64,000 bases of DNA from Escherichia coli O157 typing phage 14: the sequence record KP869112. The stretch is one strand, 5' to 3'. How positions within the stretch are numbered: position 1 is the stretch's first letter; each line of letters starts with the position of its first letter. A program made the translations under genes and the position numbers. Of the stretch, positions 20,478 to 48,125 are shown one piece after another. The notes beneath the pieces are model-generated. The model made no database searches. It had not been told where the DNA came from and worked only from the letters and a program-made list of their open reading frames with translations.

Positions 20478-22085
20478 CACACAATTAGCTACCCGGCTAA
20501 AGTGCTGGGAGCACCTATAACACATCTTTCAACTAAATTTCCTACCACCACAATCACTTACCTCCCACACATGACTGTTTGCTTGTTTAGTGAGCAGTCA
20601 TGCCTTGACATTCTTGCCTATCCTGATAAAATTAAGTTCTTCTCTTTTCTTTTACCGAGTAATTCGGGTTTTCTGTTCTCTTCGGTTTGAAGGGGTATGG
20701 AGATACACCTGAGTGAACAGGGTGAACAACCGAACCATTGGCTATGGCATTAGCATGGCGAAGCGGACGGGTGACGAAAGAGGGGCCGGAGGACACCAGT
20801 CACTGCCATATGATATATAGGTGATAACCTGAAGAGTCTGAATAAGTGTTTAAGTACCAGTCAGAGGAAAAGGTGAATGGTAGCCGAAGGGGGAGGGGGG
20901 TTTCTTGTATCTTTAATTTGTATATTATGTATACACTTGTAAACCAACACCATCTGAATTTGCTTACCACACAAAGCGGATAGAGACAAATATTACCTAT
21001 TAAACTTGAATTATTTATAGAAAATACCACAACACCACTTAAGTCTTTGATTTTACACATAAATCCTACAGATATTCACCCTCCATATTTAACATACTTG
21101 TAACATATCTATACCCAACCTGTCTGATCAACTCACCCAACTACATCCTCCATATTTCCCCTGTCTGTACTACCCCTGCCCAGCCGGGAGTCCCGTCATA
21201 TCTGGCTTTCCAGCAAATATCACACCCACAAATATCATTGCCTGAAGAGGGTTTCATCCCATAATACATGCCTTACCTGAAGAGCGCTTCATACACCACG
21301 TAAATTTTTTAATTGACCTGCAATTTTCCCGTCATGACCCCCTGCCCCGCCAGAGAGGTTGACTTTTCCCACACAGACCTGAAGAGCCAGCCAGAAATAT
21401 CTGAACAGGTCCAGTTATACCACGATTTTGACCTGACCGACAGGAGTGCCTCCCTGTCAGGAGCCGGTAGCGACTGGAGTGCTGCCAGGCGGACGAAATG
21501 GGAATACTTCTCATTCTTATAATAATTCTCAAATATCGAGGCAGTGAGGCAAATTAATAGGTGAGGCCGTTCACACAGTGGCACAACATTTGCAACCTAT
21601 CTTGTGGGGTGAATGAGAATACCTATCATTGTGAGAATAGTTATCATTACGGGCAATTTAACATAATACCCATTATGCGCACCACTGGCGATACATACAG
21701 GGGTTGATAACATGAGTTACTGTTTACGCACATAACAATTATATTTCTTACTATTTGTGTGGGATATAGTTAGCAGCCGATAGATTAGATATTGACCTGT
21801 AGACTTCCAACCGTCTAGACGTCTAAACGCCCACACAACAAGGCTTATACATACATCACTGAATGTAAACAGGACCGCAAAAATGCTACCATACAAGCTT
21901 GTAAATTTTTCATGCAGCACTTGACAAAGAGGAGGAAAACTTGTCTGACACACTGGGCACAACATAACATACTGCAGCACAATATGACACAATAACGACT
22001 GTTATTATTTCATGTTTCACTGTTCACGTATAGATTGTTCCCGCATAGACTGTTTACGCCTGGATAGTTCACGCATAGATGATAA

Positions 22086-24441: not shown

Positions 24442-24547
24442 AATGTTTTCCTCTCTTCTGGTTGTTGTGTGGGCACTTTTGCCCCTTCAAGATAAATGTT
24501 ACCCCACCCCCTGGCAGATGTCAACGGTTTTTATAGTTCTTATATGA

Positions 24548-24593
24548 CAGGCACCCCCGGTGATTGTCTCCCCCCGTCGCCAGGTGCCTGCCG
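24548..24593 (-). repeat. copy 1 of conserved GGCAGGCACC...GACGGGGGGAGACAATCACCGGGG element (minus orientation), with flanking 8 bp stem
   Basis: Reverse complement nearly identical to 33654-33690. Confidence 0.6.
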
Positions 24594-24600
24594 TGGAATA

Positions 24601-24629
24601 AGTATAACAAAAAACAGGACCATTGCAAG
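24601..24629 (-). promoter_or_regulatory. candidate sigma70-like promoter (CTTGCA, 17 nt, TATACT) upstream of the conserved element
   Basis: Hexamers on minus strand. Confidence 0.35.
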
Positions 24630-24652
24630 CCCTGTTTTGTAGTTTATAAATA

Positions 24653-24844
24653 TTATATTTTTTCGCCTATGTAGTCCGGTCGGTTTTTCTCTGTCATGCG
24701 CTTTAGCAATTCTTGAATAATCCATATTGCGGTCAATGTCTCATCTTCACGCTTTGAGTCAACATAATCAGGATCGTTTATAACCTTTGTTTGATTATGA
24801 TATCTCAATACCGCCAACACTTTTACAGCTTCATCAGTGGTCAT
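24653..24844 (-). CDS. hypothetical protein
   Basis: ORF-track ORF; weak RBS. Confidence 0.4.
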   Translation of the reverse strand: MTTDEAVKVLAVLRYHNQTKVINDPDYVDSKREDETLTAIWIIQELLKRMTEKNRPDYIGEKI

Positions 24845-24989
24845 TATCGCACCTAAAACAATGAGTTAATATATAACACCAGATCGCTGACCACTAGAAT
24901 AACACTGATCAGCACATACCTAACCATAAGGGGAAAGAGCGCCAATATTGCCACCACAATCCCCAAGGTGATGATTATCTTTTTCATGG

Positions 24990-25274
24990 TTAACGGTTCA
25001 CGTAAGTTTTCCCGTTCACGGTTATGGGCAGATCCTCCAGGTCTGGGTCTTCCTTAAGGTCGCGAGCAAGCTCACCGCACCGGATACCCTCGAATCCGTA
25101 GTACTCTGTTGTACCGTCATTAAAAGTTTTAGCGGCAAGGCATAAGCGATAAGTAACCCCGATTTGATTGACGGCATGGATATCCGTTAGATCAACCTCT
25201 TTTGCCAGCTCTTTAGCCATTACAGGCGCATTAAGTCCAACAACCAGGGCAACCACTGCGATCATCTTTTTCAT
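24990..25274 (-). CDS. secreted/periplasmic small protein (signal peptide)
   Basis: N-terminus MKKMIAVVALVVGLNAPVMA looks like a cleavable signal peptide; RBS AAAGAGGA. Confidence 0.5.
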   Translation of the reverse strand: MKKMIAVVALVVGLNAPVMAKELAKEVDLTDIHAVNQIGVTYRLCLAAKTFNDGTTEYYGFEGIRCGELARDLKEDPDLEDLPITVNGKTYVNR

Positions 25275-25365
25275 TGTGTCTATCCTCTTTCTGCTACGTT
25301 TAAGGCGGCGGTAACCGCCTGTTTATGCTTTGTTGGTTAATTTTCAGGTATCTGTATAAATTAAA

Positions 25366-25581
25366 CTATGCTGTACGCTCAACTATAACAACGGTTTGGG
25401 GGATCTCACCTTCCACCACTAGTAAGGCCTTTTTCTGCGTGATGGATATCTTTACCCGTTGCAGCGTGGCGGTGAAGTCTTTCATTTCGTCACGTGGTGT
25501 TTTAGTGCAATGCCAGATCTCAGGCTTACCTATTTGCAAGCCGCGTAAAAATTCTGTTTTACCTGTCTTATTCGTGATCAT
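25366..25581 (-). CDS. hypothetical protein
   Basis: ATG with AAGGTGA RBS; ORF-track start 25590 is an extension. Confidence 0.45.
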   Translation of the reverse strand: MITNKTGKTEFLRGLQIGKPEIWHCTKTPRDEMKDFTATLQRVKISITQKKALLVVEGEIPQTVVIVERTA

Positions 25582-25591
25582 TTTATTCACC

Positions 25592-25696
25592 TTAACCGAT
25601 ACCGTGGGAAGATAGGATCATGTTAGCCATAGTTGCAACCACTCCAACCGATAATGCCAGGCCAACTACTACAACCGTGAAAATTTTCTCTAACAT
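25592..25696 (-). CDS. small hydrophobic peptide (34 aa)
   Basis: RBS GAGGG before ATG; single TM helix; below ORF-track cutoff. Confidence 0.35.
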   Translation of the reverse strand: MLEKIFTVVVVGLALSVGVVATMANMILSSHGIG

Positions 25697-25748
25697 GATT
25701 CTACCCTCATTAATGGGCGTTGCCTTATTGCCCCGCCCTACGAAATAC

Positions 25749-25776
25749 ATTCTACCCGATTTGTAATTGTTGTCAA
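25749..25776 (-). promoter_or_regulatory. candidate sigma70-like promoter (TTGACA, 16 nt, TAGAAT) on minus strand
   Basis: Hexamers on minus strand upstream of the 25696 peptide gene. Confidence 0.4.
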
Positions 25777-25782
25777 ACTATT

Positions 25783-25962
25783 TTAACGATAATCATCATA
25801 TGCTTTATTTACCTGGCGAATATAACATTCAAAAGCCAGATCAATAGATTTATATTCACGAATATACTCACCATAGGAAACCACATACATTTCTATAGCT
25901 TCCTCATATGCGAGGAGAATAGAATCTAAGCCTACGATCTCAGTCTTTGCAATAATAGCCAT
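25783..25962 (-). CDS. hypothetical protein (59 aa)
   Basis: RBS AAAGAGGATAAA before ATG; below ORF-track cutoff. Confidence 0.4.
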   Translation of the reverse strand: MAIIAKTEIVGLDSILLAYEEAIEMYVVSYGEYIREYKSIDLAFECYIRQVNKAYDDYR

Positions 25963-26038
25963 GATTTTTATCCTCTTTGTGGTTGGTGGGGCTTGTTGCC
26001 CCCCTTTGATTTATATATTACAGTCTTATATGGTCATG

Positions 26039-26272
26039 TCAACTATTTTCAAAAAATTTTTCTGCTGTGATATTTTTCCCGGTCGGATTCGCTACTTTCA
26101 AAATTTTATCATGTACTGGACGCCCAAAAGAATAAGATCCGTATACAGTAAACCAATAATCGCCGTCAGGCTGTACTATTACCGCCGCATATGGTACGCC
26201 TTTTTCGTTTTTGCTGACAAAATAGATCACATTGCCATTAATAGCCTCAGCGCGTTTAATTTGTTCCATCAT
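26039..26272 (-). CDS. hypothetical protein
   Basis: RBS AAAGAGAGG; preceded by GGGGCC-hairpin. Confidence 0.5.
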   Translation of the reverse strand: MMEQIKRAEAINGNVIYFVSKNEKGVPYAAVIVQPDGDYWFTVYGSYSFGRPVHDKILKVANPTGKNITAEKFFENS

Positions 26273-26326
26273 GATGATTTACCTCTCTTTATTTTCATAA
26301 TTGGGGCCTTTTCGGCCCCGCCAGGT

Positions 26327-26611
26327 TTATTTATTGATAGCGTGCAGCGGGAAAGGTACGCCAGGTTGATAGATAACTTTTACAACCTCATCAGGGCAAA
26401 AGAAATTGCAGAATTCCCCCTGATAAGCCTCATCCTCTTTCAATTCTTCATCAACATACTCAAAAAAGTAGTCAACACTTGGATAATCTTGCCCTGGGTT
26501 ATAGTCAACCATTGTCAGGACCAGTTCAAGATCGTTGCGTAGGATATGCATACCCGCTTTTAAGTATTTTGCTTCCATTTCTACTACATCGCCAGCGGTA
26601 ACAATAGCCAT
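26327..26611 (-). CDS. hypothetical acidic protein
   Basis: RBS AGGAG before ATG. Confidence 0.5.
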   Translation of the reverse strand: MAIVTAGDVVEMEAKYLKAGMHILRNDLELVLTMVDYNPGQDYPSVDYFFEYVDEELKEDEAYQGEFCNFFCPDEVVKVIYQPGVPFPLHAINK

Positions 26612-26813
26612 GGTTTTAACTCCTATCTATCCGGTTAATGATTGGGGGGCCTCCCCCCTGACACGTCCTATTATCCATATTGTAGGGCTTGATGCAAGTA
26701 CTTCTTTAAAAAATTTTTAAGCGCCTTGGGGCCGCTGTAACGCTAAAATAATAAAGGCCATGCAACCGCATAGCCTTTATGTGATTATATCACTGCAGGA
26801 CCTGCTAGAGGCC

Positions 26814-27164
26814 TTATTTTGCATTCTTGCCTGTATTGCCGCCACGGTACCAGCGTTTGCGGTGAAAATGGTAATAATCACCCTCGGCATTAAACATCAG
26901 ATGATTTTCAATAACCAGCTTACGAAGGTGGGCCGGATCTTGTTCCATTCTTGCCAGATTCCGGCGGCTGTTACGTAAGCGTATAAATTCCATATTCAGG
27001 CCGTTGATTGCAGCATGGATGTCAAAGTAACCACCTTTGAGACGTTCACGCATGGCGTTAAGCTCAACACAATATACAGATTTCTCACAAATCAAGGTAT
27101 TAGCTAGGGCGCGGACCTGGGCAAGGGGGTTAAGCTCATTAAGGTAATATAGTTTGACTTTCAT
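26814..27164 (-). CDS. hypothetical protein
   Basis: ORF-track ORF. Confidence 0.45.
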   Translation of the reverse strand: MKVKLYYLNELNPLAQVRALANTLICEKSVYCVELNAMRERLKGGYFDIHAAINGLNMEFIRLRNSRRNLARMEQDPAHLRKLVIENHLMFNAEGDYYHFHRKRWYRGGNTGKNAK

Positions 27165-27181
27165 AAAATCGCCTGCTGAAA

Positions 27182-27490
27182 TTAGTTTGAGAAAACATCG
27201 TTCACAATAGCGATCACAATGCCGCCCACCTTGTCACGGTCAACAATGCACAAATCACCATGGATCATGCGGTAGTCTGGATGATCTTTCACAGAATAGT
27301 CAATAAGTGTTTTCTTGTCGTCCAGCTTCGTAACTTCCATTCTCATAACGATATGAGAATCATCAAAGGCATTATTCCGAAAAGTCATAGCCTGACCGCC
27401 AGGGCACCCGGTGATCTCCACTTCCACACCATCTACGATCTGACCATCAAAGAAATAAAGATTATTAGCCTGGATAAACATGTCTATCAC
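27182..27490 (-). CDS. hypothetical protein
   Basis: RBS AAGGAGTGA before ATG. Confidence 0.5.
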   Translation of the reverse strand: MIDMFIQANNLYFFDGQIVDGVEVEITGCPGGQAMTFRNNAFDDSHIVMRMEVTKLDDKKTLIDYSVKDHPDYRMIHGDLCIVDRDKVGGIVIAIVNDVFSN

Positions 27491-27527
27491 TCCTTGTTAA
27501 CTGCGTGGTATTTTAACAGGGTTTAAA

Positions 27528-27572
27528 TTTACTTTATTGATGGCCCTGGAGTCAAGGCCATCTAAAAATAAA
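27528..27572. repeat. 45 bp conserved intergenic repeat, copy 1 (TTTACTTTATTGATGGCCCTGGAGTCAAGGCCATCTAAAAATAAA)
   Basis: Near-identical to copies at 31399 and 32019; 7 bp hairpin GATGGCC/GGCCATC; lies immediately 3' of the stop codon of a minus-strand gene. Confidence 0.65.
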
Positions 27573-27574
27573 TT

Positions 27575-27775
27575 TTACAGGCCTACAATCTCTTTGATTC
27601 GTTTAACCGCTGCCTCAGCGCCTTGGGGGTAAAAATTATGGTAACCAATCACGCGAGTGATACTAATCGCCGTTTGATGATCTTCATAGTCGCCCTTGAA
27701 GATTTCTTGACCGTCAATCAGCACGGCAATTTTTTCTTCTTTTTTGAAGTTAATAACGCGGATATTGTTGCTCAT
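27575..27775 (-). CDS. hypothetical protein
   Basis: RBS GAAAGGAGAAAC. Confidence 0.5.
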   Translation of the reverse strand: MSNNIRVINFKKEEKIAVLIDGQEIFKGDYEDHQTAISITRVIGYHNFYPQGAEAAVKRIKEIVGL

Positions 27776-27914
27776 TTTGTTTCTCCTTTCTGGTTTTTGT
27801 GTTGGTGGGGATGTTTCCCCGTTGATTGTTATTATCCATATTGCGGACCAGATTGCAACACCCTGGAAGAAAAATTTTTTGAAAAAGTTAAGCCCCCCAT
27901 GATCGGGGGCGTTA

Positions 27915-28034
27915 TCAGTTACTTATAGCAATAAAGTACATTCCTACCCCTAACAATATTTCAAGGGCGATGATCTCAAGCCATACCATAACCTGGCGCA
28001 CCTTATCGGTGCGGGGCTTATCCTTGGTTGTCAT
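27915..28034 (-). CDS. small membrane peptide (39 aa, MTT start)
   Basis: RBS GGAGGAAAGGGGGAG before ATG; hydrophobic C-terminal half. Confidence 0.4.
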   Translation of the reverse strand: MTTKDKPRTDKVRQVMVWLEIIALEILLGVGMYFIAISN

Positions 28035-28276
28035 CGTCTCCCCCTTTCCTCCTGGTAGTAGTGACGTAGTTTACAATGGCCCCCAGGAGTACCATCACCA
28101 CGCACATCATAAGAAAAATTATCTCTGTCGTTGTTCGATCCATTGTTATAAAATTCCTCAAGATCAGGCCTGAAAATAAAGCGTTCGTTATTGAATCCAT
28201 CACGCCAGGCGGCTGGCTTCAAATCTTCATTAAAGGGATTAATTAACGTGGTATTATTTAAACGGCTGGCCCACAT
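28031..28276 (-). CDS. hypothetical protein
   Basis: RBS GAGAGGAATAG before ATG; overlaps alternative ORF 28018-28203 in another frame, so call is uncertain. Confidence 0.35.
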   Translation of the reverse strand: MWASRLNNTTLINPFNEDLKPAAWRDGFNNERFIFRPDLEEFYNNGSNNDRDNFSYDVRGDGTPGGHCKLRHYYQEERGRR

Positions 28277-28625
28277 ATTTTCTATTCCTCTCAAATAGGC
28301 GATCCGCCTCAGTTAAACATATCTCATGGGCTTGATCTCTGGTTTTAGCCTCATCAAAAACTTGTTGTGCCAGGCTGCAGCGCAAGGAGACCGGAAGATC
28401 ACTATAATAGGCGTTAACAAAAGTTTGGGCGTCATACAGGTCGGAAAATACTTTACCCTTCTTATTATTATCCTTGTCAACAATTGCAAGGATAACTAGT
28501 ACAATGGTTGCAACCACCCCCAAGAAAATAGATATAATAAACCATAAAAAGGCGGATCTACCCATCTTGCCAGCTATCCAGGCGTTGAACAAGGCAACTA
28601 CTACAGCCAAAATAATAAATTCCAT
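28254..28625 (-). CDS. membrane protein
   Basis: ATG with AAAGAGG RBS at internal Met; two TM helices; ORF-track start 28763 is an extension. Confidence 0.5.
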   Translation of the reverse strand: MEFIILAVVVALFNAWIAGKMGRSAFLWFIISIFLGVVATIVLVILAIVDKDNNKKGKVFSDLYDAQTFVNAYYSDLPVSLRCSLAQQVFDEAKTRDQAHEICLTEADRLFERNRKYVGQPFK

Positions 28626-28692
28626 TCTATGTACCTCTTTTGCAGTTCTGTTTAACAATAAGGCGGCAAATATGCCGCCGCCTGTTACCTGA

Positions 28693-29073
28693 TTAAAAAC
28701 TATCGCCGTAAATCTTCCCGCTTTCTGCCCACACCACCACGCGGGGCATACTATCCCACACATCTTGTTTTAGATTGAGCGCGTGCAATTCTTCGATGGT
28801 GCCCATACCGGGCACGGGCTGATTGTATACTGCAAAACGACCACCCGCATAATCATAGGCTAGAATTAAATCACACTGGATCATCTTTTTGATCATGGCA
28901 TTAAGCATGGCGTTAGCCGCATACTGATCACGTTTTAAAGGCAACTCTTTGATTAGTTTGCGATAGTTTTCGATATGGTCGCACACTGTTTCACGCGGAA
29001 GATCTTTCATATCCTCGCGAAAGGTAACCAGGTTAAACATAACGGTGTAAATAGCTTTGGTAGTGTTTTTCAT
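28693..29073 (-). CDS. hypothetical protein
   Basis: RBS AAAGAGGAAAAC. Confidence 0.5.
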   Translation of the reverse strand: MKNTTKAIYTVMFNLVTFREDMKDLPRETVCDHIENYRKLIKELPLKRDQYAANAMLNAMIKKMIQCDLILAYDYAGGRFAVYNQPVPGMGTIEELHALNLKQDVWDSMPRVVVWAESGKIYGDSF

Positions 29074-29162
29074 GATGTTTTCCTCTTTGTTTTGTGTGGG
29101 GGCAAACGTCTTGCCCCTTGAGTTTTAATATAGCAGGTTTTTAGGTTATTGCAACACTTTAT

Positions 29163-29786
29163 TTATGAAAAAGTCATCTCGCCATATTCATCCACATCAA
29201 ACCGCCAATCATTGGCCTCGATAAGGCCGATCAGGTTTTCGGTGGTGAATTGTTCAAGATAGGCTTGCTCCAGGTCTACGTAAACCTTGCGGGATAACTC
29301 CCGTACCGTCTCGGTGATCAGCTCTTCCAGCTCTTCAACTTTATCCTCTTGCTTGGTGGTCAGGTCTAGCCAATTGGTATCGATGCACCCGCCTATTGTG
29401 TTTTCGTGATGATAATGGCTAAACGGGATACGTTCAACGCTGGCTGACAGTTCGCCATCATGCATTGTGCCGAACAAGTGTCTAATTAAGCGGAATTTTG
29501 TAAGCGCTTTAACCTTACGCAAGAATTTTTCTAAGTTTACATTTTCAGCGCTAATTGATGCGCCGTCGCCTTGACACCAAAAGCCGGACCAATGTATTTC
29601 GGTATCTTCAAGGCCATACTCTGGAAAAACATATTCTTTATAGTACTCAATTACACTTTCTGCAAAAAAGTTATCCCCGCTGTGTTCTTCTCTTTCGCGG
29701 ACCATTTCAACAGCTTTTTCTTTTTGTTCGTCGGTCAGCACGTCGAAAGATAAATTGTAACCTGTAGTAATGTTAACGGTGGTCAT
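29163..29786 (-). CDS. hypothetical acidic protein
   Basis: RBS AATAGGAGAAAAT; no confident motif. Confidence 0.5.
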   Translation of the reverse strand: MTTVNITTGYNLSFDVLTDEQKEKAVEMVREREEHSGDNFFAESVIEYYKEYVFPEYGLEDTEIHWSGFWCQGDGASISAENVNLEKFLRKVKALTKFRLIRHLFGTMHDGELSASVERIPFSHYHHENTIGGCIDTNWLDLTTKQEDKVEELEELITETVRELSRKVYVDLEQAYLEQFTTENLIGLIEANDWRFDVDEYGEMTFS

Positions 29787-29820
29787 GATATTTTCTCCTA
29801 TTTTCTTTGTTAGTGGCGGG

Positions 29821-30094
29821 NNNNNNNNNNNNNNNNNNNNNNNNNNNNNNNNNNNNNNNNNNNNNNNNNNNNNNNNNNNNNNNNNNNNNNNNNNNNNNNN
29901 NNNNNNNNNNNNNNNNNNNNNNNNNNNNNNNNNNNNNNNNNNNNNNNNNNNNNNNNNNNNNNNNNNNNNNNNNNNNNNNNNNNNNNNNNNNNNNNNNNNN
30001 NNNNNNNNNNNNNNNNNNNNNNNNNNNNNNNNNNNNNNNNNNNNNNNNNNNNNNNNNNNNNNNNNNNNNNNNNNNNNNNNNNNNNNNNNNNNNN
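29821..30094. other. assembly gap (run of N)
   Basis: 274 consecutive n characters. Confidence 1.
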
Positions 30095-30247
30095 TTTAAT
30101 CACTGGACGGCCTTGCCAGTGCCCTTGGAGAAAGCGCGCTTTAACTTTATCGGTGGAACTATCACGCCACCAAACGGCTTTATTATTGCAGTAGTAAAAA
30201 TTATTCAGGACAACATCGACTTTATCAAAATTTTTTAATTTACGCAT
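30095..30247 (-). CDS. hypothetical protein, 3' end lost in assembly gap
   Basis: RBS GGAAGGAG before ATG at 30247; ORF runs into N gap. Confidence 0.4.
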
Positions 30248-30282
30248 GGCGTTTACTCCTTCCTTCTTGCTTTGATGTGGTT

Positions 30283-30311
30283 AGTATATCCGGACTATCC
30301 CAAGGTGTCAA
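30283..30311 (-). promoter_or_regulatory. sigma70-like promoter on minus strand (TTGACA, 17 nt, TATACT)
   Basis: Hexamers on minus strand ~35 nt upstream of the 30247 start. Confidence 0.5.
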
Positions 30312-30492
30312 GCTTTAAATAGAATCACTGTCAATAATATTTTTAACGCCATAAAACGGCCCTAGACGCTGTTTTCAGGTTAAGAAAGGGGATTGCATAG
30401 GTAGGGGCCTTTATGGCGCTTGTAGGGCCAACCAGGGGCGCTATCGGCGGGATAGAAATAAAAAGCCCCGCACAATGGCGGGGCGTTGGTTG

Positions 30493-30690
30493 CTATTTGT
30501 CTTTGTGGCGGTATCGTTCCGCCTGTCGTTCACGTTCCAAAAGCAGGCCCGGTAATTTGCGATCATAGTGATTTCTCCAGATCTTCCCGAACCTTTTCGG
30601 TTTATTCGGTTTATTGTTACGCTGGCGGCGTTCCGGCAGCTCTTCGGAATCGTGGGGGCGCTTTACAATTTTTTCGAAATTAATTTTCAT
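30493..30690 (-). CDS. small basic protein
   Basis: ATG with AAGGGGG RBS; arginine/lysine-rich. Confidence 0.4.
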   Translation of the reverse strand: MKINFEKIVKRPHDSEELPERRQRNNKPNKPKRFGKIWRNHYDRKLPGLLLERERQAERYRHKDK

Positions 30691-31033
30691 AAACGCCCCC
30701 TTTACTGATCTCAATATTTGCCTGAATCGCCCGGATACGACGTTTTATAGTCTCCTGATCCTTGCAATCATATCCCCAAAAGTCTACGATTTTTGCGCCG
30801 CCAGCCTTTAAGCGGTATAATGTTTCTTGCATCTTGTAAGCTGGGATCGGTCTCGGTGTTACCTGGTCCCCTTTCTCATCCTTGTACTTGATAATGTAGT
30901 CTTCATTGTCGTTGAATACCCAAAATGGGTATTCTGTAAGCGCGTTGCTCTCTTTTTCGTTTTTGGATTGGATCTTGTTTACAATTAAAGCCGTAGCAAT
31001 AGCGCCAATAATAAAACTTGCCCCGCTGATCAT
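30680..31033 (-). CDS. membrane-anchored protein
   Basis: ATG with AAAGGAGAAAG RBS; N-terminal TM helix. Confidence 0.45.
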   Translation of the reverse strand: MISGASFIIGAIATALIVNKIQSKNEKESNALTEYPFWVFNDNEDYIIKYKDEKGDQVTPRPIPAYKMQETLYRLKAGGAKIVDFWGYDCKDQETIKRRIRAIQANIEISKGGVYEN

Positions 31034-31109
31034 GTTACTTTCTCCTTTCATTGTGCTGATAAACTATCTTTATAGATGGCCCTGCTACCAGGACCACCGA
31101 AAAAACAGT

Positions 31110-31355
31110 TTATTTGACGATACCGACAAAACAGATCCCGCCTTCCCCTATATAGGCAACATCGGTAATTTTATAATTTGTCAAGATCCGCGTGTTCAGA
31201 TCATTAATAAAATCGGTCATCGCGTTGGTGTAGTTGTCTTCCGTGTCTAAGGCATAATCCCAGGTGTAAACCTTTTTACGTCCGAAGCCTTTTACCATGA
31301 TACGGGCGCTTTTGGTGTTGGTAGGGGCATAATATTTGGTGATTAGTGCTGCCAT
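31110..31355 (-). CDS. hypothetical protein
   Basis: RBS AGAGGAG. Confidence 0.5.
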   Translation of the reverse strand: MAALITKYYAPTNTKSARIMVKGFGRKKVYTWDYALDTEDNYTNAMTDFINDLNTRILTNYKITDVAYIGEGGICFVGIVK

Positions 31356-31398
31356 GGTTTTAACTCCTCTGAATTAGTTCAGTGTTAACAGTATAAAG

Positions 31399-31442
31399 TT
31401 TACTTTATTGATGGCCCTGAAGTCAAGGCCATCTAAAAATAA
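31399..31442. repeat. 45 bp conserved intergenic repeat, copy 2
   Basis: Near-identical to 27528 and 32019 copies; directly abuts stop of 31445 gene. Confidence 0.65.
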
Positions 31443-31444
31443 TC

Positions 31445-31786
31445 TTACTCGTTTTCTTCCAGCTCTGCAAGCTCTTCTTTTGCTTCTTCTAACTCTGTCT
31501 GTAGTTCCTGGTATTCTTCATCGTCCTCAATATCCAGGCTGTCGATGTAGTCGCTAAATCCGCAGCGGTAAGCGATAGGATCTAGCTCCTCGAGGATACG
31601 CGACGGAAGAAAAGAAATGTTTCCGATCATAATTTCGCCGTAGATCTCGTCTAACCATTCATCATAGTTTTCGTCGTACTTGTCCTCGTCGATTTCAAAG
31701 TTATCGATCTTATTCTCAAGGTCTGCGATCTGTTTTTTCAGCGCGGCGATCTGCATGGCTTTTTCTGCGGCGGTCATAGTAGTCAT
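31445..31786 (-). CDS. hypothetical acidic coiled-coil protein
   Basis: RBS AAAAGGAGAAAAAC. Confidence 0.5.
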   Translation of the reverse strand: MTTMTAAEKAMQIAALKKQIADLENKIDNFEIDEDKYDENYDEWLDEIYGEIMIGNISFLPSRILEELDPIAYRCGFSDYIDSLDIEDDEEYQELQTELEEAKEELAELEENE

Positions 31787-31865
31787 GGTGTTTTTCTCCT
31801 TTTGTGTGTTCTGGGAAGTTTTCCCGTCTATGTGTTTAGTATACTGATCTAAGTTAGCTTGTCAA

Positions 31866-31985
31866 TTAAAAGTTTAAGAAAAATTTTGCGATACCGTTGG
31901 CGCTACCCATCAACATTTGCGCCAGGATGTAACCAATGATGCAAACGATAATAGTTACCTTTGTGTGCTGGCGTGTAGTACTCAT
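31866..31985 (-). CDS. small hydrophobic peptide (39 aa)
   Basis: RBS AAGGGGG before ATG; TM helix. Confidence 0.4.
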   Translation of the reverse strand: MSTTRQHTKVTIIVCIIGYILAQMLMGSANGIAKFFLNF

Positions 31986-32018
31986 CTTTAAGCCCCCTTT
32001 CCGCTCAACTGTGGTTAG

Positions 32019-32063
32019 TTTACTTTATTGATGGCCCTGAAGTCAAGGCCATCTAAAAATAAA
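32019..32063. repeat. 45 bp conserved intergenic repeat, copy 3
   Basis: Near-identical to copies 1 and 2; directly abuts stop of 32065 gene. Confidence 0.65.
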
Positions 32064-32064
32064 C

Positions 32065-32469
32065 TCAGTAAGTTTTCAGTACTTTACCGTCCAACCTGTC
32101 AAGCTGGATCTCGATAGCTGCAGAAAACCTATTGTAAACCACATCGCCCATAGAATCCAACCAGTCTATGACATTATACACTTGCTCTTTGTTCTTGCAG
32201 GTCCGGATCCGTTTCATGATGTAAGCCGGATCAATATTGGTACTCTCGTTGGTGTTCCCCTGTACCTGGTTTGCCGTATTAGTTACATCTTTAATGGCCT
32301 TTACCACCACCTGGAATGGCTTTAAGGTGCCTTTTGCGTTCATCTCACGCGCTTTTGCGGCGCGGTTGTTATATGTTACACAACGGCGGCAAATGTTGAC
32401 CAAATGCATATCAATAATTTTTTCATCGTTTGCCAGTTCGTTCATGATGCGGCGTACGTTCTTATTCAT
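32065..32469 (-). CDS. hypothetical protein
   Basis: RBS AAAGGAAAAAG. Confidence 0.5.
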   Translation of the reverse strand: MNKNVRRIMNELANDEKIIDMHLVNICRRCVTYNNRAAKAREMNAKGTLKPFQVVVKAIKDVTNTANQVQGNTNESTNIDPAYIMKRIRTCKNKEQVYNVIDWLDSMGDVVYNRFSAAIEIQLDRLDGKVLKTY

Positions 32470-32552
32470 GATCTTTTTCCTTTGTGTTGGCGGGAAACAT
32501 TCCCGCCTTTTGTGCCTAGTTTACTTTAATTTTGCAGCGTGTCAATAATTTT

Positions 32553-32951
32553 TTATTCATGGGCGCATGTTACAATGTGCTTTTTATAGCCCAGGTGGTC
32601 AGCAAGTGCCGACAAAAACTCTTCTTCGTAGATCCAGCCGTCGGCAGTGATCCCCATAGCATTTAATGCGCTCTCAAGTGCTGCGTTAGCTTTATCATAA
32701 CCGTGACCGCTCGCCTTGCCGCCAGTATAGCCGTACTTATTGTTCTTGTTGTCGTGTATCCAAAAAACGCAGTAGTAAGTGTTCCCGCTGGCGGCGGCAT
32801 AATACCGGATCTCAGCTACTTCGTGCAAATTATTGTCATCGTCCAGGCCCACCAGATTATAAGCCTTGTAAAATCCACGATCACGGCGGCAGTTCTTGAC
32901 ATCAGAAAAAGAAAAGTCTGCATTATCAAAATTAAAGGTAGTGGTTTTCAT
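32553..32951 (-). CDS. hypothetical protein
   Basis: ORF-track ORF with purine-rich upstream region. Confidence 0.5.
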   Translation of the reverse strand: MKTTTFNFDNADFSFSDVKNCRRDRGFYKAYNLVGLDDDNNLHEVAEIRYYAAASGNTYYCVFWIHDNKNNKYGYTGGKASGHGYDKANAALESALNAMGITADGWIYEEEFLSALADHLGYKKHIVTCAHE

Positions 32952-33015
32952 GATTTTATCCTCTTAGTGTCTTTTGTGCTTTTAGTGTATTTGGTGTCGG
33001 ACTATATGTCAATAC

Positions 33016-33213
33016 TTATTTTTTATTAAACCAGTGGTTGATCTGACCTTTTGTCAGGGCGCAACGATTAAGCTGTTGCAGGGTATAGCTATGACCGCGA
33101 CGAAATTTATAAAGGCCTTGCCCGTTGTTGATGGTTACATCCACCCGGCAAATCACTTGATTGGTGACCACCTGGCGAGTGTTGCGACGTACTTTGATCC
33201 CGTATGCGTTCAT
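33016..33213 (-). CDS. hypothetical basic protein
   Basis: ATG with AAAGAGGATAAA RBS; ORF-track start 33291 is a TTG lying inside the promoter -35. Confidence 0.45.
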   Translation of the reverse strand: MNAYGIKVRRNTRQVVTNQVICRVDVTINNGQGLYKFRRGHSYTLQQLNRCALTKGQINHWFNKK

Positions 33214-33262
33214 AAATTTATCCTCTTTACTGGTTAGTGCGGTGTTGTTCACCTTGTAGGGT

Positions 33263-33291
33263 AATAATACCATGATTAACCTTGTTGTCAA
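33263..33291 (-). promoter_or_regulatory. sigma70-like promoter on minus strand (TTGACA, 17 nt, ATTATT)
   Basis: Hexamers on minus strand at the head of the 23-33 kb small-gene block. Confidence 0.5.
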
Positions 33292-33557
33292 CGACTATTT
33301 TAAATTATTTTTATGATAGAATCCACCTGCCGCCCCCGCCAGGTTAACCACCATTTTTTCGTACTCTTCTTTATGTTCCAACGCTCCCGCCATAGCCTTT
33401 TCAACCAGGGCGATAGCCTCAGCGTCATTAATCGCTACATTTTCCAGGGGATCATATTACCTTTCATTTTTGTACCTCCTCTCCAGTTGTTGCCTACCCT
33501 ATAGCATAGCCCTACCAGGTTTGCAAGCTTTCACTCTCCCCTGCCAGGCTGGCCCCG

Positions 33558-33600
33558 CCAGGTCCTGGCAGTGGGCGCACCTGGTTATAATTTTTTTTTT
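33558..33600 (+). terminator. hairpin (CCAGGT/ACCTGG and CTGCCAGG/CCTGGCAG) followed by T10 run
   Basis: Inverted repeats and ten consecutive T seen in sequence. Confidence 0.35.
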
Positions 33601-33607
33601 GAAAGGT

Positions 33608-33636
33608 GTTGACAGCGGCCCCGCCAGGTGGCACAA
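33608..33636 (+). promoter_or_regulatory. candidate promoter (TTGACA, 17 nt, TGgCACAAT)
   Basis: Perfect -35, TG-extended weak -10, immediately upstream of conserved element copy 2. Confidence 0.35.
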
Positions 33637-33653
33637 TATACCTATCGAAAGGA

Positions 33654-33690
33654 CGGCAGGCACCGGTGACGGGGGAGACAACCACCGGGG
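33654..33690 (+). ncRNA. candidate small RNA / regulatory element, copy 2 (CGGCAGGCACCGGTGACGGGGGAGACAACCACCGGGG)
   Basis: Promoter-proximal, no ORF, paralogous to 24548 and 33791 elements. Confidence 0.25.
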
Positions 33691-33754
33691 ATGGGCGCTG
33701 CATAAAATGAGAACGGTTATCATTATCATTTAAAAATTTATGCAAAAAATCCTT

Positions 33755-33783
33755 GCTTTCTTTGTCCTGTGTGATACTATAAT
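33755..33783 (+). promoter_or_regulatory. candidate promoter with perfect TATAAT -10 and weak -35
   Basis: TATAAT at 33778-33783 upstream of element copy 3. Confidence 0.3.
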
Positions 33784-33790
33784 AACAAGC

Positions 33791-33830
33791 CGGGGCAACA
33801 GGGGCCGGGAGACAATCACCGGGCCTGCCC
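33791..33830 (+). ncRNA. candidate small RNA / regulatory element, copy 3 (diverged)
   Basis: Shares GGGAGACAATCACCGGG core and downstream GAGAATGATTATCATT block with copy 2. Confidence 0.2.
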
Positions 33831-33959
33831 GTTATTCTGCAAACGAGAATGATTATCATTCAAAATTCTAAATGAGAACTCCTCACATTTAATAAATTTA
33901 ATTAGCATGCTAATTACCCTCCGTAACAATTTCCTATAAAACAGTATCCCATAAAATAT

Positions 33960-34440
33960 TCCCATATAGAAATTTTAAAAATCCATTTCTGAAAACGAAA
34001 AATCGATTTCGTCCCCAAAAATTTCAGGTCGAGATCCGGAACGATTTCCAGAAAATCCGATTCAGAAAACGAAAAACAGATCGAGTACTGAGAAATTTAT
34101 CGAGAAAAATTTTCAGAAAATCCAAGCCCTGAAATGAAAAGTAGATCGAGTACCTGGAAAGCTGCACCGCAACTTCAAGATAGTGGTTAGATTGTTACCA
34201 TAGAAGGTCAAGGGTAAGTGGAGGAAGTTCTGGTAGAGGGAGGTTAGCATGTGTGGGAAATCTATAATGGTGGCCTGGAATATGGTGCAAACGATAGGAT
34301 GAGTTATTCAGCTTGTCGCGCCTACTCTGAAAAATCCATTTTAGTTTTCGATCCATTTTCTGATTTTCTAAGAATTTTAAAATATCCAGCCTGGTGAAAT
34401 ATCAAAAGGAGGAAATCCATTTTAGAAATCCCCCTTATAC
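33960..34440. repeat. AT-rich repeat tract: AAATCCATTTT (x4), TTCAGAAAACGAAAAA-like (x2), GATCGAGTAC (x2), CAGAAAATCC (x2)
   Basis: Short direct repeats read in a ~0.5 kb ORF-free stretch. Confidence 0.5.
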
Positions 34441-34465
34441 TTGATATGCCAGGAATTTTCAAGTA

Positions 34466-37962: not shown

Positions 37963-37991
37963 CAAAAATGCCCCACCCTTTCGGGCAGGGC
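37963..37991 (-). terminator. intrinsic terminator (GCCCTGCCC-GAAA-GGGTGGGGC + UUUUUG on minus strand)
   Basis: Hairpin with GAAA tetraloop and U tract 3' of the 38007 gene; identical hairpin recurs at 48099. Confidence 0.65.
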
Positions 37992-48098: not shown

Positions 48099-48125
48099 AA
48101 AAAGCCCCACCCTTTCGGGCAGGGC
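48099..48125 (-). terminator. intrinsic terminator (same GCCCTGCCC-GAAA-GGGTGGGGC hairpin as 37963)
   Basis: Identical hairpin plus U tract 3' of the 48132 gene. Confidence 0.65.

Follow-up and report, generated by a model that had tools for sequence, protein, structure and literature searches.

The stretch of DNA analysed here, called the window, comprises 64,000 nucleotides (nt) of Escherichia coli O157 typing phage 14 (KP869112), and the subject of this analysis is a short promoter-proximal element that occurs in it three times. Its sequence marks the phage as an rV5-like Vequintavirus, with 92-95% identity to rV5-like coliphages (Vequintavirus; naswa, EmilHeitz and rV5) over the 11.5 kb that surround the repeats. 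In rV5 the equivalent region is a long early unit of small genes, all of them on the minus strand of the window. The promoter and the element behind it are best read as a conserved non-coding regulatory cassette and not as a self-contained small-RNA gene.

Copies of the element and their promoters

An earlier note on this DNA, made from the sequence alone, had reported three repeats of about 40 bp, and these were recovered within 1-2 nt of where it had placed them. The 17-mer core GGGAGACAAYCACCGGG matches exactly at 24556-24572 (-), 33673-33689 (+) and 33807-33823 (+), against a chance expectation of 0.14, and none of 100 shuffles (0/100) gave three matches. No further match to the core was found in the 64 kb even when up to three mismatches were allowed, and an nhmmer profile search of the window returned the same three copies and no others. 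The limits of the element were set by us at 24546-24592 (-) for the first copy (c1), 33655-33702 (+) for the second (c2) and 33790-33833 (+) for the third (c3).

The c1 element (GGCAGGCACCUGGCGACGGGGGGAGACAAUCACCGGGGGUGCCUGUC; minimum free energy -23.1 kcal/mol for 47 nt) begins 8 nt past the -10 of a sigma-70 promoter at 24601-24628 (-), TTGCAA-16-TATACT with an extended -10 TG. The -35 of this promoter is held in the loop of a terminator-like hairpin at 24611-24638 (-), with an 11-bp stem and a T run, that closes the upstream early gene (rV5 ORF169). A second canonical early promoter, P168 of rV5 (24496-24524 (-), TTGACA-17-TAACAT), lies 22 nt past c1 (45 nt to its -10) and drives ORF168/167 on the same strand as c1. 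No intrinsic terminator follows c1 on its strand until the end of the early unit at 22963-22944.

The other two copies form a tandem pair of which c2 is the upstream member and the most diverged copy, UGGGCGCUGCA replacing the conserved UGCCYGYY. Its sigma-70 promoter at 33609-33637 (+) reads TTGACA-17-CACAAT with TG, and the element begins 17 nt past the -10. The c3 promoter (33753-33783 (+)) combines a perfect TATAAT (33778-33783) with a weak -35, TTGCTT, and a 19-nt spacer, and the element begins 6 nt past the -10. This promoter failed the rule of the promoter scanner; the c3-orthologous promoters of other genera are stronger (CTTGCA-17-TATATT and similar). All three -10-like sites to which the earlier note had tied the repeats, on the strand it had chosen, are real. 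The gap at 33429-34465 contains no credible gene, and, as had been said before, no open reading frame (ORF) follows c2 or c3 on the plus strand; on that strand no intrinsic terminator was found after them out to 38.5 kb.

Conservation and arrangement of the two loci

In the phage collection 250 records match the c2/c3 region and 197 match the c1 region. Among the matching records are Phapecoctavirus, Seunavirus, Certrevirus and Mydovirus phages and unclassified Serratia and Salmonella phages, and in these the alignment is confined to the element and the block behind it. The module is thus present in five genera (Vequintavirus, Seunavirus, Certrevirus, Mydovirus and Phapecoctavirus), and the small family proposed from three copies grew to 33 distinct copies from the fetched loci of these genera, with further copies from metagenomes. 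Every one of the 33 lies just downstream of a sigma-70 -10, in one orientation, with a gap of 5-10 nt (17 nt for c2).

The copies occupy two loci. Locus 'a' is a non-coding gap of 0.8-1.3 kb within the early gene array, where the element points against the genes; locus 'b' lies 9-11 kb from 'a', directly after a terminator whose loop bears the -35, and here the element points with the genes. By orthology c3 belongs to 'a', where it corresponds to the single copy of other genera, and c1 belongs to 'b', whereas c2 is an additional tandem copy seen in Vequintavirus only. The terminator-with-promoter layout stands ahead of every 'b' copy in other genera, and the c1 promoter is conserved as TTGTTATACT/TATTCT in the 'b' copies of Phapecoctavirus, Seunavirus and Certrevirus.

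Outside these phages the element is nearly absent. No counterpart was found in 5,426 E. coli genomes, and the genomes of 185,579 bacterial species (one representative each) gave a single chance match, inside a gene. Metagenome matches to the element are rV5-like contigs. A scan of the IMG/VR database with a 16-mer core gave 120 matches, nearly all of them to one unrelated prophage coding gene, the relevant ones being L048, L063, L074 and the odd contig L109. The latter (1217 nt) carries at about 460-500 the sequence ACGGGGGAGACAATCACCGGGG, with 22 nt of the core, 20 nt past a TATAAT and behind a terminator; this viral contig has no match in the phage collection and the context of the core differs there, which suggests that the core is present beyond the rV5-like groups.

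Two further observations concern the loci. In the c1 and c3 orthologues the three nucleotides that link CCGG to UGCC switch between GGG and GCC independently of the remaining element, as seen when c1 and c3 of the window are compared with the orthologues L063, L074, L273, L276 and L263; these flips may be gene conversion between copies. Seunavirus and Mydovirus also have a conserved gene of about 62 amino acids (MESGKVISSETMVTL...VRIVPLPF) on the same strand as the 'a' cassette and about 230 nt upstream (14569-14760 in L125; 73-258 in L248). It has no homologue in the window, the 63-codon plus-strand ORF of which, at 33313-33504, is unrelated.

Sequence and pairing potential of the leader

The conserved part of the element is its 3' portion, GAGACAAWCACCGG-N3-UGCCYGYY-AUUC. 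The 5' part varies between lineages or is rearranged, with total length constant at 44-48 nt. In a helix named P1 the first 8 nt or so can pair with UGCCYGYY, closing an imperfect hairpin, and for P2 an inner CCGG or CUGG finds a potential partner in the CCGG behind the conserved loop GAGACAAWCA. Such a hairpin is possible in every copy. The 8-bp stem previously described for c1 exists, although it is longer than had been stated: GGCAGGCACC/GGUGCCUGUC forms 10 pairs, one of them G-U. In c1, c3 and most relatives the helix starts about 0-2 nt from the predicted 5' end; in c2 it starts about 10 nt in.

Pairing was quantified on a hand-made, sequence-verified alignment of 27 copies. The two-helix model pairs 80.5% of cells, compared with 41-50% for slid partners, a control that is biased in favour of the model because the structure was derived from these same sequences. 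Only 3 of 500 shuffles attained 80.5% pairing and 11 of 500 attained the covariation score. On the transcribed strand 39 G-U pairs stand against 18 A-C, and in one P1 pair A is found opposite U only (GC 12, GU 6, AU 4, AC 0). The RNA-sense base composition of the leader is asymmetric, with much G and little U (G 37%, C 28%, A 24.5%, U 10%), G runs of 4-6 and a modest mean GC skew of 0.14. The pairing potential and the strand asymmetry favour, without proving, an RNA-level role on the strand that the earlier note had chosen.

A linked compensatory switch of 5' CAGG with 3' CCUG/GGUG was considered and rejected (Fisher p = 0.13; recombinant exceptions L074, L273 and L276). A covariance model built from an N-padded alignment was insensitive and brought no gain.

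The Fur-box-like block and the region downstream

The second block common to c2 and c3, which the earlier note had pointed out, is real. After c2 it is a site at 33709-33727, GAGAACGGTTATCATTATC, that agrees on the reverse strand with the Fur consensus GATAATGATAATCATTATC at 16 of 19 positions. After c3 it is the palindrome GAGAATGATTATCATTC at 33845-33861, within a stretch (33834-33889) in which it is preceded by ATTCTGCAAAC and followed about 29 nt on by a degenerate box at 33870-33889. The c3 box (33844-33863) fits the same consensus at 15 of 19 positions and the 7-1-7 motif TGATAATnATTATCA at 12 of 14; the form TGAGAATGATTATCA in E. coli relatives fits this motif at 13 of 14. The c3 box also shares ATAATCATTCTCGTTT (16/16) with the E. 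coli K-12 fhuA promoter, a stretch that is the fhuA Fur box. The window has 14 Fur-like matches, an enrichment over the 3.2 seen in Markov controls. On this sequence resemblance the block is a Fur-box-like palindrome and a candidate Fur site, and for it the alternative of a protein-binding module, also raised before, was strengthened.

In the 'a' copies the first box begins, for most genera sampled, 10 nt past the element (5 nt for c2 and 8 nt in L048). Most genomes have one to four such palindromes at this place, and in relatives 2-4 boxes recur with a period of 29 nt. The 'b' copies of Certrevirus and Seunavirus likewise carry a Fur-like box, in Seunavirus 10 nt past the element. A scan with the box pattern gave at least 120 matches, spread over a large number of unrelated viral contigs, which makes the box a common motif and not one specific to the module. 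Compared with enterobacterial Fur boxes such as those of fhuA and iucA, the putative sites of the cassette similarly fit the 19-bp consensus at 15-16 positions; they differ in lying about 55-120 bp past the start and not over the -35/-10, and in occurring as 2-4 boxes at a 29-bp period in a virulent phage.

Downstream of c3 lies a perfect 16-bp palindrome at 33900-33915, AATTAGCATGCTAATT, conserved in rV5 and L074. It is followed at 33960-34430 by an AT-rich iteron-like region, towards which c2 and c3 transcription is directed, with three units of 62-74 nt (TGAAAAYGAAAA..GATCGAGTAC) and a repeated AAATCCATTT. A Klebsiella phage has GATC-rich repeats of about 70 nt at the equivalent place, and ukendt, GAP31 and CR8 have gaps of 0.8-1.3 kb there.

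A second cluster of Fur-box-like sequences (GGGAATACTTCTCATTC, TTATAATAATTCTCA, AATGAGAATACCTATCATT, GTGAGAATAGTTATCATT) was observed at 21480-21670, including 21509-21660, in the non-coding region of about 21.4-22.9 kb between the late and early units; ukendt, GAP31 and CR8 have boxes in both orientations at the equivalents of this region. Dense CCWGG (Dcm) sites occur at 33520-33632, where GGCCCCGCCAGGT appears twice (about 33552 and 33617), the second time within the spacer of the c2 promoter, and GCCAGG is also found within the P168 spacer (about 24510).

A proposed cis-acting leader cassette

Taken together the cassette is a real, conserved and previously unannotated regulatory element. 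Our tentative reading, with a probability of roughly 0.38, is that it supplies early transcripts with a 5' leader that works in cis, and that in most genomes it is coupled to a Fur operator. Each copy would be the first 44-48 nt transcribed from a host sigma-70 promoter; we infer the firing of that promoter, the folding of the RNA, the binding of Fur and the effect. The cassette would act in cis on its own transcript. The hairpin at its 5' end may shield the RNA or tag it, some factor would read the conserved loop together with the 3' strand, and host Fur just downstream (about +57 to +120) would gate the progress of polymerase and so tie the cassette transcripts to the iron state of the host.

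Several results weigh against this reading. At the level of RNA, and in addition to the bias of the slid control, covariation is weak: four pairs show double changes, a number equalled by 225 of 500 shuffles, and the signal of compensatory change, for which the earlier note had proposed to check, is accordingly weak. RNAalifold found almost no structure in unguided alignments, folding energy is ordinary (mean z -0.66, with several copies at z > +1, worse than shuffles), and just 18 of the 27 copies fold more stably as the transcribed strand than as its complement. A conserved 3' half with a drifting 5' half fits a sequence-specific protein site, in DNA or RNA, equally well. As to Fur, c1 and the 'b' copies of Phapecoctavirus have no Fur box, from which it follows that Fur gating is not essential to the element, and a Fur site at least 55 bp downstream of the start is in an atypical position for Fur repression. 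Finally, the 'a' copies point at no gene, and a literature search found no transcriptome for any member of this phage group.

Two kinds of leader or promoter element are among the known systems nearest to the cassette. The promoter-early stem-loops (PeSLs) reportedly described by Arbiol et al. 2010 are mobile regulatory cassettes found in RB49 and other T4-type phages. The likeness lies in short repeated cassettes of an early sigma-70 promoter with a hairpin among small early genes, and such a combination is found here in the c1 -35 within its hairpin loop, conserved in the 'b' copies. The PeSL hairpin, however, is at or upstream of the promoter, while the present element is transcribed, lies past the start, has a conserved loop and occupies two loci, not dozens; its transcribed G-rich sequence is an addition not described for PeSLs. 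The window also contains a 49-nt cassette in four copies, here family D1 (27526-27574, 31062-31110, 31397-31445 and 32017-32065), which on the minus strand reads GATGGCC-TTGACTTCAG-GGCCATC followed by TAAACT, an early promoter with its -35 (TTGACT) in the hairpin loop, and is PeSL-like.

The second kind is the 5'-terminal stabiliser hairpin of mRNAs, such as that in the 5' untranslated region of ompA. The resemblance is that the helix of c1, c3 and most relatives starts so close to the predicted 5' end. Stabilisers of this kind need no conserved loop or 3'-strand sequence, however, and in the cassette the c2 helix begins further in and stability is poor in several genera.

Alternative explanations

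The block GAGACAAWCACCGG-N3-TGCCYGYYATTC, contiguous with the Fur boxes, could instead be recognised as double-stranded DNA by a protein of phage or host, which at +20 to +60 would control the promoter of the cassette, the next one downstream, or both; the hairpin potential would then be a by-product of G+C-rich dyad symmetry. Such an operator would account for the conservation of the 3' half as sequence and not of the 5' half, for the fixed 10-nt distance to a palindromic DNA site, and for the unconserved folding stability and weak covariation; moreover, the c1 element stands at about -40 to -85 of P168, a position of the activator type. It would not account for the absence of any copy (0/33) that is separated from, or inverted to, its upstream promoter, for dyad mismatches that are mostly G-T on the transcribed strand (the 39 against 18 above), or for the strongly strand-asymmetric base composition, and the next promoter follows at distances between 22 and about 95 nt. 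We consider it unlikely, if the most serious of the alternatives.

The cassettes of locus 'a' fire into AT-rich, GATC-rich iterons, and their transcript might activate or prime an origin of replication, the 'b' copy being a minor second site; the G-rich leader would give a persistent RNA-DNA hybrid, or the DNA would simply be opened. Here c2 and c3 face no gene but the 62-74-nt iterons with their repeated AAATCCATTT, a promoter-to-iteron arrangement with GATC clusters recurs in other genera, and the leader is G-rich and U-poor with long G runs. Tandem promoters stand also at the primary origin of T7, and the comparison with T7 phi1.1A/B, the R-loops of T4 oriF/oriG and ColE1 RNA II extends to a G-rich non-coding transcript that runs into AT-rich repeats. 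The authors of the rV5 genome paper, who gave consensus promoters and one non-coding box, were unable to locate an origin (PMC3606486). On the other hand, no GC-skew switch was found at 33-35 kb, the skew across the window merely tracking gene strand; behind the 'b' copies stand a promoter and genes, and no AT-rich repeat region; the GC skew of the leader is modest; and neither priming nor R-loop formation explains why GAGACAAWCACCGG should be invariant. A role of this kind appears quite improbable.

Still more doubtful is that the copies are trans-acting small RNAs, short stable molecules whose loop, GAGACAAWCA(CC), base-pairs with some target of the host or phage or sequesters it. The promoter-proximal position, the single-stranded appearance of the conserved loop, the stable hairpin of the window's copies (-20 to -23 kcal/mol) and the layout as a multi-copy family agree with it, and short RNAs could in principle be released if Fur blocked polymerase about 10 nt past the element. 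The earlier note's discrete transcripts of about 80-100 nt nevertheless lack support, because no copy is followed by an intrinsic terminator; as in a gene for an Hfq-type small RNA there are promoters, but the intrinsic terminator with a U tail, expected within about 50-300 nt, was not found on the transcribed strand, and c1 runs directly into a promoter and early genes. The 64-kb window, moreover, has no second match to the loop or to its complement, E. coli shows no similarity, and the hairpin is poorly stable in several genera. Among known RNAs, a search of the whole window against Rfam 15 at gathering thresholds gave no family match, and at E up to 10 around the copies only chance-level matches far below threshold appeared.

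Two kinds of mimicry were tried and rejected. Mimicry of CRISPR (clustered regularly interspaced short palindromic repeats) repeats of types I-E and I-F rests on short G+C-rich coincidences only, with no repeat hairpin. For a type III antitoxin mimic like pseudo-ToxI of Certrevirus phiTE, no tandem array of ToxI-like repeats of about 36 nt is present, and the boxes, repeated every 29 nt, are palindromes of the kind seen in DNA sites; the phiTE locus itself is unrelated in sequence to the cassette (PMC3475682).

A processive antitermination site of nut or put type, whose nascent hairpin, with or without a small phage protein, makes polymerase ignore terminators and Rho, seems to us improbable. 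In lambda and P22 nut and HK022 put (nutL/nutR, putL/putR) a short structured RNA likewise stands right after early promoters at two loci in opposite orientation, and the early region of the window is full of hairpin cassettes (family D1). GACAA within the conserved loop is also the loop sequence of P22 boxB, GCGCUGACAAAGCGC; RNAfold closes a GACAA pentaloop with A-U and G-C in rV5-type copies, predicting it for c3, and c1 offers the same register. The pentaloop is not shared by all genera, however: it cannot be formed in the Salmonella (SalR7), ukendt ('a' copy) and L184 types, and it is altered to ACAAA in the Klebsiella (K45) and GAP31 types. No boxA (CGCUCUUA-like) was found beside any copy, the two adjacent stem-loops of HK022 put, which need no protein factor to act in cis on polymerase, give way here to a single predicted composite hairpin, and searches of the phage collection gave no similarity to lambdoid phages. 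There is also little for such a site to overcome, with one terminator downstream of c1 (that at 22963-22944) and none for c2 and c3 on their strand.

Lastly, a coding sequence or its remnant (for example rV5 ORF198 opposite c2/c3, or a transfer RNA) can safely be dismissed, for although a hypothetical protein is annotated across c2/c3 in rV5 and several relatives and the reverse-strand frame is open for 92-115 codons in the three Vequintavirus sequences compared, its start lies within the Fur-like palindrome without a ribosome-binding site, aligned lengths reveal indels of 1, 2 and 5 nt among Vequintavirus relatives, the Klebsiella Mydovirus frame ends after 7 codons (ATG ATA ATC ATT CTC ATT TGC TGA), GAP31, CR8 and ukendt have neither an annotated nor an open ORF there, and ARAGORN found no transfer RNA in the window or at the Klebsiella locus. 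By this comparison across genera coding is excluded outside Vequintavirus, in line with the non-coding character claimed from the start, and the 'hypothetical protein' that many records place on c2/c3 (rV5 ORF198) has almost certainly no gene behind it.

Other candidates on or near the element were rejected as well. A leader peptide MRMIIIQxxK* through the box has no ribosome-binding site, its start and stop derive from two boxes and both codons between them vary at all positions. A reverse-strand promoter TTGAAT-18-CAGAAT, overlapping the Fur box and with the element as its leader, has a -10 whose key positions vary (CTGAAT, CGGAAT, CAAAAC) and which is set apart by a 30-nt insertion in the Certrevirus 'b' copies; an alternative -10, GATAAT, has no usable -35. 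ARAGORN detected no transfer-messenger RNA in the window either. One Klebsiella phage record annotates a tRNA-Met over the homologous site; ARAGORN's blank result at that locus speaks against a transfer RNA origin and implies that the coordinates given in the record are wrong, an artefact. All five transfer RNAs annotated in the stretch of L122 (OY978796.1, Klebsiella phage K45PH128C2) are unsupported by ARAGORN, and the transfer RNA coordinates of this record appear shifted.

Other features of the region

Some observations were made away from the cassette. On the minus strand at 33434-33466 a very strong Shine-Dalgarno sequence, GGAGAGGAGG, precedes a 10-codon ORF (MKGNMIPWKM*) just upstream of the dubious ORF197 (rich in W and R, 42 amino acids). 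Within the early region G+C falls sharply to 0.22-0.30 at 29600-30200, being about 0.42 elsewhere. A near-identical pair, AAAA(T/A)GCCCCACCCTTTCGGGCAGGGC, at 37965-37991 and 48099-48125 has the look of strong terminators when read on the minus strand.

The records of the related phages HdK5, EdH4, Gotham, PD06 and Mt1B1_P17 begin at the equivalent of about 22000, in the non-coding region of 21.4-22.9 kb, and a terminal repeat of 328 bp has been reported for a phAPEC8-like phage (PMC6563267). Since independent related records start there and such a repeat exists, a physical genome end may lie near 22000, about 2.5 kb from c1. Some 17-22 records named 'Campylobacter phage' (MG0656xx) share 89-98% identity with this coliphage region and look like mislabelled or contaminating rV5-like phages.

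Biological significance

A literature search found no earlier description of the promoter-leader cassette; the paper on phage CB7 reports the sigma-70 consensus alone (PMC7344957). Very few non-coding sequences are conserved, as the cassette is, all the way from Escherichia phages to those of Pectobacterium, Serratia and Proteus, so that it probably marks a key control point. The rV5-like and phAPEC8-like phages are, besides, widely used in biocontrol and therapy collections.

The Fur-box array is the most testable and most interesting feature of the cassette. A bolder reading, and on balance an unlikely one, is that virulent enterobacterial myophages of two subfamilies carry an iron-sensing cassette of promoter, leader RNA and host Fur operators, or else arrays that titrate Fur. 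If it senses iron, early transcription, and possibly replication at the iteron region, would be linked to the iron state of the host. If it titrates, the arrays of the amplifying genome would derepress host iron uptake and so feed the iron-dependent nucleotide metabolism of the phage. On this bolder reading the leader would represent a new class of phage cis-regulatory RNA. Should the Fur boxes be functional, they would provide a clear case of a strictly lytic phage wired into the iron regulon of its host.

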